Part shown: piece after piece, positions 21,288-46,949 of the stretch
Numbering within the stretch: position 1 is the stretch's first letter
Layout: each line of letters starts with the position of its first letter
From: Escherichia coli
GTDB lineage: Bacteria > Pseudomonadota > Gammaproteobacteria > Enterobacterales > Enterobacteriaceae
Reading direction: 5' to 3' (one strand)
DNA: 64,000 nucleotides
Assembly (NCBI RefSeq): GCF_044324785.1
Contig: NZ_CP172127.1
Made by a program: the position numbers and the translations under genes
Notes under the pieces: model-generated
Databases searched by the model: none
Told to the model about the DNA's origin: nothing
The model's input: only the letters and a program-made list of their open reading frames with translations

Positions 21288-21630
21288 TTTCTAGGCTTGT
21301 CTGTAATCGGGGATAATAGAAATATGTTCCATCAATTTTTTCAGTTCCATTTTGTTCTCCTTAATTATGTAAGGAGTATTTGATCATGTATACGCAATAA
21401 AAAACAGCTTTAGGTAATAAGGAATATCTCAATTTTTAAACATAAAATGCGAATTATTTAGTACAAAAAGTGAACTTCTGATGATCTTTCCCTGCCCATT
21501 GGGTTCATTAAGATCAAGAATAATGGGAATATGCTCAAGAAGACTTTGAATGTTCACCAGACGTCCTTTTCTAATATATTTAATTATTTGGCGATTAAAT
21601 TTTAATCAAATCAACAAGGTAAAACCAAGA

Positions 21631-21660
21631 TTAAAGTTGTGATGATAATCACAACTTTAA
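21631..21660. terminator. perfect 13-bp inverted repeat (TTAAAGTTGTGAT-GATA-ATCACAACTTTAA), candidate terminator downstream of the Rhs immunity gene
   Basis: seen directly; on the minus strand it is followed by TCTTGGTTTT. Confidence 0.4.
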
Positions 21661-21696
21661 TGATCTTCCCCTGATTCCTCCAGTCCTTTTATTTGG

Positions 21697-42343: not shown

Positions 42344-42862
42344 ATGTCCATCCGTTTTGCCCGCAAAGCCGACTGTGCTGCCATTGCGGAAATTTATAAC
42401 CACGCTGTGTTGTATACGGCGGCTATCTGGAATGACCAAACGGTGGATGCAGATAACCGCATTGCCTGGTTCGAAGCGCGGACTTTAGCAGGTTATCCAG
42501 TGCTGGTGAGCGAGGAAAACGGCGTAGTGACGGGATATGCCTCGTTTGGCGACTGGCGTAGTTTCGATGGTTTTCGCCATACCGTGGAACATTCGGTTTA
42601 TGTCCATCCCGATCATCAGGGCAAAGGTCTGGGGCGTAAATTGTTAAGCCGATTGATTGATGAAGCGCGGGATTGCGGGAAGCATGTCATGGTCGCGGGG
42701 ATCGAATCACAAAATCAGGCTTCGCTGCATCTGCACCAGTCGCTGGGATTTGTCGTCACCGCACAAATGCCGCAGGTGGGCACTAAATTTGGGCGCTGGC
42801 TGGATCTGACATTTATGCAGTTGCAACTCGACGAGCGCACTGAACCGGACGCGATTGGATGA
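42344..42862 (+). CDS. mnaT: GNAT acetyltransferase (methionine sulfoximine/sulfone N-acetyltransferase), 172 aa
   Basis: MSIRFARKADCAAIAEIYNHAV...HQGKGLGRKLL. Confidence 0.88.
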   Translation: MSIRFARKADCAAIAEIYNHAVLYTAAIWNDQTVDADNRIAWFEARTLAGYPVLVSEENGVVTGYASFGDWRSFDGFRHTVEHSVYVHPDHQGKGLGRKLLSRLIDEARDCGKHVMVAGIESQNQASLHLHQSLGFVVTAQMPQVGTKFGRWLDLTFMQLQLDERTEPDAIG

Positions 42863-43308
42863 ATCAGTCGCTTACCCTTGCTTTTTTGATTGCCGCCGGA
42901 ATTGGTCTGGTGGTGCAAAACACGCTGATGGTGCGCATCACCCAGACCTCCTCTACCATTCTCATCGCCATGCTGCTGAACTCACTGGTGGGGATTGTGC
43001 TCTTTGTATCTATTTTATGGTTTAAACAAGGCATGGCGGGGTTTGGCGAACTGGTGTCCAGCGTGCGCTGGTGGACACTTATACCTGGCTTGCTGGGATC
43101 GTTTTTTGTCTTCGCCAGTATCAGCGGATATCAGAATGTGGGGGCGGCTACGACTATTGCGGTACTGGTCGCCAGTCAGTTGATTGGCGGTCTGGTGCTG
43201 GATATCTTTCGCAGTCATGGCGTACCACTACGGGCGTTGATCGGCCCAATTTGTGGCGCAATTTTACTTGTGGTTGGTGCCTGGCTGGTGGCCAGGCGCA
43301 CATTTTAA
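42859..43308 (+). CDS. ydcZ: DUF606 inner membrane protein, 149 aa
   Basis: 149-aa membrane ORF overlapping mnaT stop. Confidence 0.85.
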   Translation: MNQSLTLAFLIAAGIGLVVQNTLMVRITQTSSTILIAMLLNSLVGIVLFVSILWFKQGMAGFGELVSSVRWWTLIPGLLGSFFVFASISGYQNVGAATTIAVLVASQLIGGLVLDIFRSHGVPLRALIGPICGAILLVVGAWLVARRTF

Positions 43309-43542
43309 TCAGAGGATGGTGCCACCTTTGGTTAACTGTTCGTGGCGCGCTTCCATATCTTCTTTATGCTTGCGACCGTGATGAGCAATAGCGGTGCGCA
43401 AACGCTGCTGCTGGGTGTAGCGATCTTCCCGACTTAACTCCGCGTCATCGCTCAGGGCGATTAATAATTCGTTCATATGGGCAATGACGCTCTCTTCAAT
43501 CGCGGCATCCACGCGCGCGATGACTTCATCCAGATGCGACAT
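43309..43542 (-). CDS. ydcY: DUF2526 protein, 77 aa
   Basis: MSHLDEVIARVDAAIEESVIAHMNELLIALSDDAELSRE... Confidence 0.8.
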   Translation of the reverse strand: MSHLDEVIARVDAAIEESVIAHMNELLIALSDDAELSREDRYTQQQRLRTAIAHHGRKHKEDMEARHEQLTKGGTIL

Positions 43543-43627
43543 ACTTTCTCCTTAGCCACTTGTGAAATTTATCGATTCATCCAAATGATATAAGTCTGCG
43601 TGGTGCCGTCAAGCCAGTGCGTAAGAT

Positions 43628-43801
43628 TTAAAACAGAGAAAACAACAGCGCCACCGGGAAACTCATCGGCCATGTAGCCCCCACCAGAAAGGCACTTAAG
43701 AAACGGATGCGTTTCTTATCGTGAGAAAGAAACCAGGTGATAAGAAATGCGATTGCTGCCATAACCGCATAAAAAACAAGCATGTGTTGATAGAGAGACA
43801 T
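43628..43801 (-). CDS. ortT: orphan membrane toxin OrtT (YdcX), 57 aa
   Basis: MSLYQHMLVFYAVMAAIAFLITWFLSHDKKRIRFLSAFLVGATWPMSFPVALLFSLF. Confidence 0.8.
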   Translation of the reverse strand: MSLYQHMLVFYAVMAAIAFLITWFLSHDKKRIRFLSAFLVGATWPMSFPVALLFSLF

Positions 43802-43995
43802 GTACGGGCGTCCAGCCAGATGAATAAAACGCGCGCAAATATGCGTCATTTTTTGACGTGCATCAAGTTTTTTAACCGGTTTGAGAAGAAAACATCAAAC
43901 AGCAACTTGCCCTTATCCATCTTCAGAATGAGTATTATTGCGGATTTTCTTAACCCGTACTATACACATAGGGGCAATGATAAAAGGTGGCAAAA

Positions 43996-44091
43996 ATGAA
44001 TGTTTCCAGTAGAACTGTAGTACTGATAAATGTCTTTGCTGCTGTTGGTTTGTTTACTCTTATCTCTATGAGATTTGGCTGGTTTATTTGA
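43996..44091 (+). CDS. yncL: small protein YncL, 31 aa, single transmembrane helix
   Basis: MNVSSRTVVLINVFAAVGLFTLISMRFGWFI; not in ORF track (<60 aa), read directly from DNA. Confidence 0.7.
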   Translation: MNVSSRTVVLINVFAAVGLFTLISMRFGWFI

Positions 44092-44114
44092 TGTAGTGAT
44101 TTTGCACGCAGCAC

Positions 44115-44147
44115 GTACTGTCAGAGAAATCAACTCTCTGACAGTAC
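44115..44147. repeat. perfect 12-bp inverted repeat GTACTGTCAGAG / CTCTGACAGTAC with 9-nt loop, downstream of yncL
   Basis: seen directly; no flanking T-run on either strand. Confidence 0.5.
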
Positions 44148-44492
44148 ACAAGATCTTCTCATACTCTCCAGGTTTACAACATTATCCTTAATATTTACTT
44201 CTTTTTGCTGGCATCTACATTGAAATGAGTAGAAAACATCCCCCTACTGTCGTCTATACAAACAGCTTACTGATTCAAAGGGAATCTTGTTTTCACATTT
44301 TTCTATCATCAATACTTTAGACGCGCGGGAGTCTATAAATGCTTTATACTTTCAAGGAATAACGTAAATATAAAAAGATGGCGTAAAGTATATGCATGGC
44401 AGGATGATTGCAACCTCCTTGATGACGCTGTCCCATTGAAATTGCAAACCCCGCACTGGTTATCTTACTCATTTATCATGTAAAACAGACAA

Positions 44493-45302
44493 TTATAGGT
44501 CTCTGAATATCTCAGAAAGATTGAATTTTTTATAGTCCCTCTCTTGAATATTTCCATTTGATATCAATCGATTCATCTCTTCAACAAAATAATTTATATC
44601 ATCACATTTGTTATTATCCGGAAGATCTGAGTAATTATAATTCCACCACTTTATTCTCAACAATTCATCAATAATATTTGAATCAAATCTAAATCTGATT
44701 ATTTTTGCAGGAACTCCTGCAACTATGGCATATGGGGGCACATCTTTGGTAACAACGGAATTGGCAGCAATAACAGCACCATCACCTATTGCGATACCAC
44801 CTTTCAATACAACATCATTTCCTATCCAGACATCATTTCCTATAATCGGATTTTCAGGTTTGGTAATGAATGGTTTCAATGCCCAGCTACGTTCAAACTC
44901 ACTCATAGCAAACTTATCAAATTCACCGTTATAAGTCATCATGTGAGTAGTAAAACGATTCAAAGGATGATTTCCACCCATTATTTTTACATTTGATGCA
45001 ATACTACAAAATCGACCTATATGTATATTCCCTGTAAAATGACAGGTCGGAAATGAAAAAGCGCCGACACTGGAGAAATTTTTTACAGGCATTGTTGAAT
45101 ATTCTTCAGCAATAACATTATCTTCAATTGTTATCTTGTCACCTTTTGAGAAAAGAAATAAATTCCTTTCTTTATACGACTTCTTCCCCTTATGATTTAA
45201 AAAGATTTTATTATCCATACAAAACTCAAAGTGTTTTTTCGTCCACCTGAAGGTAAGGGTTTTATTTTTATCTTCCGTGAATTTATACAATTGAACTTTC
45301 AT
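44493..45302 (-). CDS. hexapeptide-repeat xenobiotic acetyltransferase, Vat/CatB-like, 269 aa (start uncertain)
   Basis: HIGRFCSI...GGNH...IIGNDVWIGNDVVLKGGIAIGDGAVIAANSVVTKDVPPYAIVAGVPAKIIRFRFDSNIIDELLRIKWWNYNYSDL closely parallels streptogramin A acetyltransferase motifs; strongly AT-rich. Confidence 0.75.
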   Translation of the reverse strand: MKVQLYKFTEDKNKTLTFRWTKKHFEFCMDNKIFLNHKGKKSYKERNLFLFSKGDKITIEDNVIAEEYSTMPVKNFSSVGAFSFPTCHFTGNIHIGRFCSIASNVKIMGGNHPLNRFTTHMMTYNGEFDKFAMSEFERSWALKPFITKPENPIIGNDVWIGNDVVLKGGIAIGDGAVIAANSVVTKDVPPYAIVAGVPAKIIRFRFDSNIIDELLRIKWWNYNYSDLPDNNKCDDINYFVEEMNRLISNGNIQERDYKKFNLSEIFRDL

Positions 45303-45524
45303 TGTTAATACTTCTACTTATAAATTATTAGGTTAATAACGATACTCTAAAGCCTTATGCGAATCAACTATGACAGGATGAAAAATCACCAACATACATT
45401 TAGATCATAATAACTGCCTAATTTTTCCGCTAGTTATTAATGTAATCATTCTGATACTTAATCACCATTACACTCAGAACCTAAAACGATAGTGGCCGCC
45501 CTATAACAGCCACTAACATTTAAC

Positions 45525-46949
45525 TTAATGTTTAACCATGACGTGGCGGACGACGGTGTAATCCTCCAGCCCATAAAGTGACATATCCTTGCCGTAACCA
45601 GAAAGTTTCTGCCCACCGTGCGGCATTTCACTTACCAGCATGAAATGGGTATTGACCCAGGTACAACCATATTGCAGCCGCGCGCTGACGCGATGCGCCC
45701 TGCCCACATCTTTCGTCCATACCGAGGATGCAAGTCCGTACTGGCTGTCATTTGCCCAGTTCACCACCTGTTCTTCGTTGTCGAAATGCGTAACACTCAC
45801 TACCGGACCAAATACCTCTTTTTGCACGATGGCATCGTCCTGTAATGCGCCAGCCAGTAGCGTCGGCGCATAGTAATAGCCATTACCCTTGCGCTTTTCA
45901 CCGCCAGTGATCACTTTGATGTGCCCTGTCGCTTTCGCCTCTTCTACCGCTTTGCTGACGCGTTCGAGATGCGCCAGCGAGCTTAAAGGTCCAAGCTCCG
46001 TAGACTCGTCATCCGGTGCACCAGATTTTAACGTTGCCACTGCAGCACCGAGTTTTTCCACCAGCGTATCGTAAATACCTTTTTGCGCGTAGATCCGACA
46101 AGCCGCAGTACAATCCTGTCCGGCATTGTAATAGCCAAAAGTACGTACACCTTCGGCCACCGCTTCAATATCCGCATCATCAAAAACTATCACTGGCGCT
46201 TTGCCTCCAAGTTCCATATGAGTACGCTTTATGGACGGCGCGGTATGGCTGATGATGTGCTCGCCAGTGGCGATAGAGCCCGTCAGTGACACCATCCGCA
46301 CTTTGGGATGTCCGGTCAGCGGATCGCCCACCGTTTTGCCTCTGCCAAACAGTACGTTAATCACGCCTGCCGGGAAGATATCTTTCGCCAGCTCTGCCAA
46401 CTTCAACGCTGTCAGCGGGGTAATTTCTGATGGTTTGAGCACTACGCAGTTCCCTGCCGCCAGCGCCGGAGCCAGTTTCCACGCAGCCATCATCAGCGGA
46501 TAATTCCACGGTGCGATAGAAGCCACGACCCCCAACGGATCGCGACGGATCATCGAAGTATGACCTTCAAGATATTCACCTGCCGCCAGACCATGCAGGC
46601 AGCGAGCTGCTCCGGCGAAAAAGCGAAAGACATCGACAATCGCCGGAATTTCATCATTGAACGCACTATGCAGCGGTTTACCACAGTTACGGGACTCCAG
46701 TTCGGCAAAAACCTGACCATTTTCTTCGATAACATCAGCCAGTTTCAGCAGGCATTCCGCACGCGCTTTCGGCGTGGTTTGCCCCCATTCGGCAAATGCT
46801 GCATCTGCCGCGCGCACAGCAGCATCCACCTGTTCTGCGGATGCCTCGGAAATCTCCAGTAAAACGTCCCCCGTTGCCGGATTATAGACAGGCTGTTTTT
46901 CCCCTTCGCCGCTAACCAGTTCTCCGTTTATCAGTAACTTATGTTGCAT
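45525..46949 (-). CDS. patD: gamma-aminobutyraldehyde dehydrogenase, 474 aa
   Basis: [33 protein letters not shown]... aldehyde dehydrogenase family. Confidence 0.9.

Follow-up and report, generated by a model that had tools for sequence, protein, structure and literature searches.

The conspicuous palindrome that follows the small gene yncL in the stretch of DNA analysed here (64 kb in length, referred to below as the window) can be explained as the element that closes the yncL transcription unit at its 3' end. We think that, with a probability of about 0.7, it is the protective 3' stem-loop of a short, Rho-dependent yncL transcript, the RNA being trimmed back to the hairpin. Two published data sets already list this hairpin as the 3' terminus of yncL, and neither the type of element nor the locus is new. 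Its importance beyond correct annotation is small in our opinion. It does provide one clean U-tract-less 3' stem-loop that is backed by covariation and conserved over three genera, and it should lend itself to testing how the Rho-dependent mRNAs that encode very small proteins gain their stability.

The yncL Locus

The window is a segment of an Escherichia chromosome, colinear with E. coli K-12 near 1.517 Mb, in which the gene order at the locus is curA, mnaT, ydcZ, ydcY, ortT, yncL, and patD. The features relevant to the hairpin are collected in Table 1. A previous inspection of the letters alone (the sequence-only reading) had described an OrtT-like ORF of 57 residues and a yncL ORF of 31 residues, both intact. 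The ORF list and the comparison with K-12 bear this out: the OrtT translation is identical to K-12 OrtT at 57/57 positions, and YncL is identical at 31/31 positions to WP_001303494.1 and at 30/31 to K-12 YncL.

Table 1. Window coordinates of the features discussed in the text.
Feature	Position	Strand	Basis or detail
ortT (ydcX), 57-aa orphan membrane toxin	43628-43801	-	ORF list; PGAP annotation of homologous loci
Putative yncL promoter	43938-43966	+	-35 TTGCGG (43938-43943), 16-nt spacer, CTATACA (43960-43966)
yncL, 31-aa single-pass stress-response membrane protein	43996-44091	+	ORF list; PGAP annotation
3'-UTR stem-loop of yncL mRNA	44115-44147	+	arms 44115-44127 / 44135-44147
Expected steady-state yncL RNA 3' end	44151-44156	+	transferred from K-12 1517039 and 1517034/5
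C-rich, G-poor tract, putative rut region	44148-44198	+	native yncL-patD spacer kept left of the insert

OrtT is a characterised orphan membrane toxin (Islam et al. 2015, PMC4344625); its gene is divergent from yncL and has no functional tie to the hairpin. As to an ortT-yncL toxin-antitoxin pair, the tests of the intergenic RNA and of a genomic library in that same study yielded no antitoxin. As for YncL, it is stress-induced, and its production leads to membrane depolarisation and nucleoid condensation (PMC12542507).

Besides the yncL palindrome, the leader of ortT has a small hairpin of its own, ACGCATATTTGCGCGCGT followed by TTTATT, at 43829-43846 of the window on the minus strand, about 30 nt upstream of the ortT ATG. 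It overlaps an in-frame upstream ATG, from which a 73-aa ORF would result. Term-seq in K-12 places a 3' end at this hairpin (1517357+), with an intrinsic terminator score of 3.18 and no Rho dependence, which points to transcription that ends prematurely, or is attenuated, before the toxin gene is reached.

On the other side of the intergenic region, the -10 element of the putative yncL promoter, TATACA, is preceded by the -13 C that is typical of sigma-S promoters. Both the -35 and the -10 are kept in 15 loci, which belong to Escherichia, Citrobacter, Salmonella, Intestinirhabdus, and Pluralibacter. This putative assignment would fit the behaviour of the Salmonella gene, whose expression requires sigma-S and whose RNA was catalogued at first as the non-coding sRNA STnc1110 (Lago et al. 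2017, PMC5437024).

Geometry and Stability of the Hairpin

The stem-loop starts 23 nt after the stop codon of yncL and is formed by perfect 13-bp arms (GTACTGTCAGAGA / TCTCTGACAGTAC) that enclose a 7-nt loop, AATCAAC. The sequence-only reading had rightly located a perfect inverted repeat after yncL, with dimensions that need correction for this strain: it gave a spacing of 24 bp, and arms of 12 bp with a loop of 9 nt, which is the K-12 allele of the hairpin. It is confirmed that the inverted repeat is not a chance occurrence. For the 43-nt hairpin RNA the folding energy is -21.6 kcal/mol (z = -6.7), a stability reached by 0 of 200 shuffles. The 64-kb window has just three distinct hairpins that are perfect over arms of 11 bp or longer and have loops of 3-12 nt, and the expectation for one with a 13-bp stem is, by our own estimate, about 0.01 per 64 kb.

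The same reading had held that the repeat is not a standard terminator because it lacks a T-run, and this stands. On the yncL strand, the 8 nt that follow the stem contain only 1 T (tail ACAAGATC), no A-tract precedes the stem (upstream sequence GCACGCAGCAC), and a terminator scan gave no call at the hairpin on either strand, neither of which carries a T-run. An Rfam scan of positions 42500-46000 returned zero matches at E <= 1. The opposite strand folds at least as stably as the yncL strand, and more stably in 18 of 23 sequences, so sequence alone cannot assign the hairpin to yncL; G-U wobbles and folding energy were both uninformative for strand assignment over these 23 sequences.

Just past the stem the composition changes in favour of C, with 12 C vs 3 G in the first 40 nt of the window and 11 C vs 4 G in K-12, and a GATCTTC(C/T)CA motif recurs at this place in Escherichia and Citrobacter. 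We propose this tract as a putative rut region.

Conservation and Covariation

When a 79-nt query was used, the hairpin was found at one place per genome in 5411/5426 complete E. coli genomes, and no further copy with up to 3 mismatches is present in the 64-kb window. With a single place per genome, the hairpin does not belong to a repeat family. The loop occurs in two alleles in E. coli, AAATCAGTG in K-12 and AAATCAACT in the window, where the stem is one pair longer; the window-type allele is carried by roughly 1090 genomes, a figure derived from mismatch counts and identity bands. The base next to the stem, at 44148, is A in the window and G in every E. coli match. For window positions 43550-45560, the best match that the 5426 complete E. 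coli genomes offer has an identity of only 98.2%. The window therefore probably stems from a lineage that this collection lacks, or from a near relative such as Shigella or a cryptic Escherichia clade.

For the comparison between species, 80 loci were taken from species-representative genomes with OrtT as the anchor. The yncL gene adjoins ortT in Escherichia, Citrobacter, Salmonella, and Intestinirhabdus, and distantly in Pluralibacter. In the first three of these genera a hairpin is found 20-35 nt past the yncL stop codon with compensated sequence changes, the 5' and 3' arms being CTGTCAGAG and CTCTGACAG in Escherichia, CTGGCAGAGAG and CTCTCTGCCAG in Citrobacter, and TGTTGGCGGGGAGG and CCTCTCCGCCGACA in Salmonella. 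Conservation of the palindrome across strains, which had been proposed as a check, is thus found within E. coli and also, with compensatory changes, across genera. The Intestinirhabdus locus is without a comparable hairpin after yncL.

To evaluate covariation, 23 distinct sequences were aligned with MAFFT on sequence only, and a stem of 12 pairs was scored. Of the alignment cells of this stem, 89.9% are paired, vs 33-53% when the 3' partners are slid, double changes occur in 6/12 stem pairs, and the covariation score was reached by 0/500 shuffles. RNAalifold, independently, recovered a 9-bp core with 3 covarying pairs. In Escherichia and Citrobacter, GCAGAG...CUCUGC forms a core that hardly varies. 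The compensatory substitutions are those of a conserved structured RNA, covariation being blind to the strand that is used, and they indicate that selection acts on pairing, which favours a nucleic-acid structure and disfavours a sequence-specific protein site. The sequence-only reading had left a choice between a protein-binding palindrome and an RNA structural element; the second part of it is upheld by the covariation and by the RNA 3' ends described below, and the first part is not supported, given the covarying arms.

RNA 3' Ends and Rho Dependence in K-12

The Term-seq study of Adams et al. (2021) lists for MG1655 a 3' end at 1517039(-), on the yncL strand, under all three growth conditions (PMC7815308, Supp. 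file 1). Its average read count was 75,264.6 in LB at OD 0.4 and 536,300 in LB at OD 2.0. The flanking sequence printed for this end in the same file finishes in ...CTCTGACAGTACGCAA, and a check on the MG1655 sequence places it 4 nt past the stem, which is equivalent to position 44151 of the window. Independently, Supplementary Data 3 of the TRS study (PMC10687069) gives 1517034/5(-) as the 'Primary' yncL terminus, 8-9 nt after the stem, with the same hairpin printed at -21.6 kcal/mol. Mapping of RNA 3' ends had also been suggested as a check on the palindrome, and these published K-12 data answer it with a yncL-strand end 4-9 nt after the stem. The TERMITe tables have no yncL entry, and yncL is absent from the supplement of a ProQ paper.

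Further downstream, the bicyclomycin (BCM) data of Adams et al. define a region of Rho termination at 1516753(-), which is 286 nt past the RNA end at the hairpin. The upstream/downstream coverage there is 220/9 without BCM and 106/72 with BCM (PMC7815308, Supp. file 2). The Rho score of this region is 16.6 (p = 5e-21), a value that is computed over 800-nt windows of K-12 data, that is to be read for a strain differing from ours beyond 51 nt past the stem, and to which unrelated antisense transcription induced by BCM inside patD can also contribute. The K-12 data show abundant yncL-strand RNA that ends directly behind the stem, together with Rho-dependent read-through downstream of it.

On this basis, we think that the yncL unit would work as follows. 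The conserved promoter elements and the 3' stem-loop together would define a short yncL RNA of about 180 nt, sigma-S dependent and induced in stationary phase. RNA polymerase would pass through the hairpin because no U-tract comes after it. Rho would then load on the C-rich, G-poor RNA just past the stem, and transcription would stop within a few hundred nt. The tail would be trimmed to the base of the hairpin by 3'-5' exonucleases (PNPase, RNase II), which the hairpin would block, so that the RNA end would become fixed 4-9 nt past the stem and the mRNA would be stabilised. The observed end would be a product of exonuclease trimming rather than of direct termination. The K-12 picture would probably apply to the window strain as well, with one difference: an insert replaces the sequence from 51 nt past the stem, and therefore the Rho termination zone is not the same as in K-12.

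Such an element has close relatives in the literature. Dar and Sorek (2018, NAR 46:6797) described a class of Rho-dependent transcripts with precise 3' ends just past stable stem-loops that lack a U-tract. In this class, C exceeds G (rut) just downstream, transcription terminates at a more distant point, and the RNA is then shortened by PNPase and RNase II as far as the protective stem. The protective stem-loop hypothesis itself is that of Peters et al. (2012). Like the members of this class, yncL has a stable stem-loop of terminator-like energy before its 3' end, neither a U-tract after it nor an A-tract upstream, and an excess of C over G downstream; in K-12 it also has a precise 3' end a few nt past the stem and, by the 800-nt windows of the published data, read-through that appears to be sensitive to bicyclomycin. 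Unlike in that class, the trimming by PNPase and RNase II is a step that we infer for yncL. Moreover, the yncL mRNA differs in being very short, highly abundant, and devoted to a small protein, and its hairpin is placed in a convergent spacer.

The AT-Rich Insert and patD

The insert occupies positions 44199-45534 of the window (1.34 kb, GC about 0.27-0.41) and encodes a 269-aa CatB-related O-acetyltransferase (44493-45302, minus strand). A 2-kb query spanning ortT to patD matched 5415 of the 5426 complete E. coli genomes, and 1154 of these carry the insert, which is present as well in Escherichia sp. MOD1-EC7003. Alignment to insert-free Escherichia shows that the native spacer runs 51 nt past the stem to ...CCTTAATATTTA, the patD stop region. 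The point of insertion is exactly the patD stop, and about 22 bp of the patD 3' end flank the insert on both sides as an imperfect direct repeat (44177-44198 and 45513-45534). A strain-variable acetyltransferase insert has landed downstream of the yncL unit, at the patD stop, and has left the unit untouched.

In the window, patD lies 1.4 kb from the hairpin and is no longer adjacent to it; patD and yncL, whose convergent overlap has been described as an excludon, are set apart by the insert. On the minus strand, a canonical intrinsic terminator (TAGTGGCTGTTATAGGGCGGCCACTA, then TCGTTTTAGG) runs from 45515 to 45490, inside the insert and just past the patD stop. In insert-bearing strains, therefore, the patD 3' end differs from that of K-12.

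Alternative Explanations

The hairpin could be a two-way element of convergent transcripts, either forming or protecting a 3' end on the opposite strand or lying within a sense/antisense overlap that is processed by RNase III, as in an excludon. The opposite-strand RNA would come from patD in insert-free strains and from the acetyltransferase gene in the window. We regard this explanation as conceivable and somewhat doubtful. On the opposite strand the stem is no less stable and often more so, and in K-12 it is situated 41 nt after the patD stop in a convergent spacer of 96 nt, which is conserved in Citrobacter and Salmonella; in the window, however, patD has the terminator of its own described above. 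ExcludonFinder lists patD-yncL as overlapping convergent transcripts, so the hairpin may also act on opposite-strand RNA, and the levels of yncL mRNA are altered in RNase E / RNase III mutants (PMC3082872). Nevertheless, neither the Adams tables nor the accessible part of the TRS data contain a patD-strand 3' end near 15170xx, an absence that is weak evidence, patD being probably expressed at a low level there. The comparison with the bidirectional terminators described by SEnd-seq (Ju et al. 2019) is similarly divided. They share with the K-12 element the arrangement of one symmetric hairpin between convergent genes that is stable on both strands, but the A-tracts and U-tracts that characterise them are missing here, the ends in the published tables that were covered fall on the yncL strand only, and in the window patD is not adjacent.

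It is unlikely, in our view, that the hairpin, perhaps with the help of a factor, halts some of the polymerases itself as a weak intrinsic terminator that lacks a U-tract, with Rho only removing the read-through. This explanation would account for a sharp 3' end 4-9 nt past a stem of -21.6 kcal/mol, and Dar and Sorek (NAR 46:6797) do allow for a mixture of inefficient intrinsic termination and Rho. Against it, the downstream coverage with BCM amounts to 68% of the upstream coverage (72/106), so that little Rho-free termination seems to be left. The hairpin is like a canonical intrinsic terminator in the length and stability of its stem-loop, in its position near a stop codon, and in that the RNA ends just after it. 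It is unlike one in having 1 T in the following 8 nt, in giving no call in the scan, and in that most transcription continues under Rho inhibition; the U-rich tract of 7-8 nt that is expected of an intrinsic terminator is found on neither strand.

The related genera add to the case for intrinsic termination. In two Salmonella loci, a G+C-rich version of the stem is extended by 3 pairs and followed by 6 T in 8 nt, and the distant yncL-like gene of Pluralibacter has a canonical terminator of A-tract, stem, and T-tract (AAAAAAGCAGCCCCGAGGCTGCTTTTTT). The simple scan made no call at the Salmonella locus either, despite the T-run that comes after the 3-bp stem extension in the fold. The Salmonella STnc1110 RNA (PMC5437024) is otherwise a close counterpart of the E. 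coli transcript, as an orthologous small, sigma-S-dependent, YncL-coding RNA with an orthologous hairpin after the stop codon; it differs in the compensatory changes of its stem and in the T-run that follows.

Returning to the protective stem-loop, we can ask whether it does more than block exonucleases passively. An extension of this kind has, we think, rather poor odds, as has the separate proposal that the mode of 3'-end formation was switched across genera. A 3'-end-binding protein of the ProQ/FinO type could use the stem-loop as a specific handle, or the yncL RNA could be a dual-function RNA that is coding and at the same time regulatory or a sponge. What leads to these readings is the near-invariant core, the abundance in stationary phase, the cataloguing of the RNA as an sRNA, and its pairing with RprA and KilS, seen in RNA-RNA interactome data. 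As for the second proposal, the orthologous 3' end seems to have moved among a canonical intrinsic form (Pluralibacter), a hairpin with a T-run (Salmonella), and a U-less, Rho-dependent form (Escherichia, Citrobacter). If true, this would be a natural example of what Dar and Sorek predicted. The possible switching of termination mode between genera and the possible use of a near-invariant core as a protein handle on an abundant RNA are, in our opinion, the mildly interesting residue of this analysis.

A DNA site for a dimeric DNA-binding protein, such as a LexA-like operator, is a very improbable explanation. The dyad symmetry is perfect, and the K-12 allele holds CTG-N10-CAG (TACTGTCAGAGAAATCAGTG), the minimal spacing of a LexA box and the only motif resemblance that came up. 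However, the arms shift between genera by compensatory substitutions (TGTCAGAG/CTCTGACA, TGGCAGAG/CTCTGCCA, GGCGGGGAGG/CCTCTCCGCC), and the site lies between two convergent 3' ends, not near a promoter. The LexA-like match is moreover confined to the K-12 allele, the window allele (loop ...AATCAAC) reading CTG-N10-CAA, and this candidate was rejected.

Finally, that the hairpin is an end, scar, or attachment site of the insert, or belongs to a repeated palindrome family such as REP, has practically no chance of being right: the hairpin is indeed close to a strain-variable 1.34-kb AT-rich segment, at whose boundary the sequence-only reading had wrongly placed it, but the junction is 51 nt downstream, K-12 and W have the hairpin and lack the insert, both loop alleles are found with and without the insert, and the single copy per genome, with none elsewhere in the window at 3 mismatches, refutes a mobile-element end and a repeat family alike. 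With REP/BIME elements it shares the position of an extragenic palindrome at an mRNA 3' end and the ability to block exonucleases; unlike them, it is single-copy and without the REP consensus. In sum, the yncL hairpin lacks the defining features of a canonical intrinsic terminator and of a bidirectional one, and likewise those of REP elements and of operators.

Other Perfect Palindromes in the Window

A second perfect hairpin, of 11 bp, is located at 5525-5550 of the window (CTGATTTATCA AGGG TGATAAATCAG). At 21630-21661 there is a perfect 14-bp palindrome, ATTAAAGTTGTGAT GATA ATCACAACTTTAAT, which contains TGTGA-N6-TCACA and thereby resembles the CRP consensus. The 500 bp around the latter are multi-copy in E. 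coli, with a median of 4 places per genome, and in strain N3 the palindrome is found between a transposase pseudogene of the ISAs1 family (H-repeat) and a hypothetical gene beside an RHS core gene.
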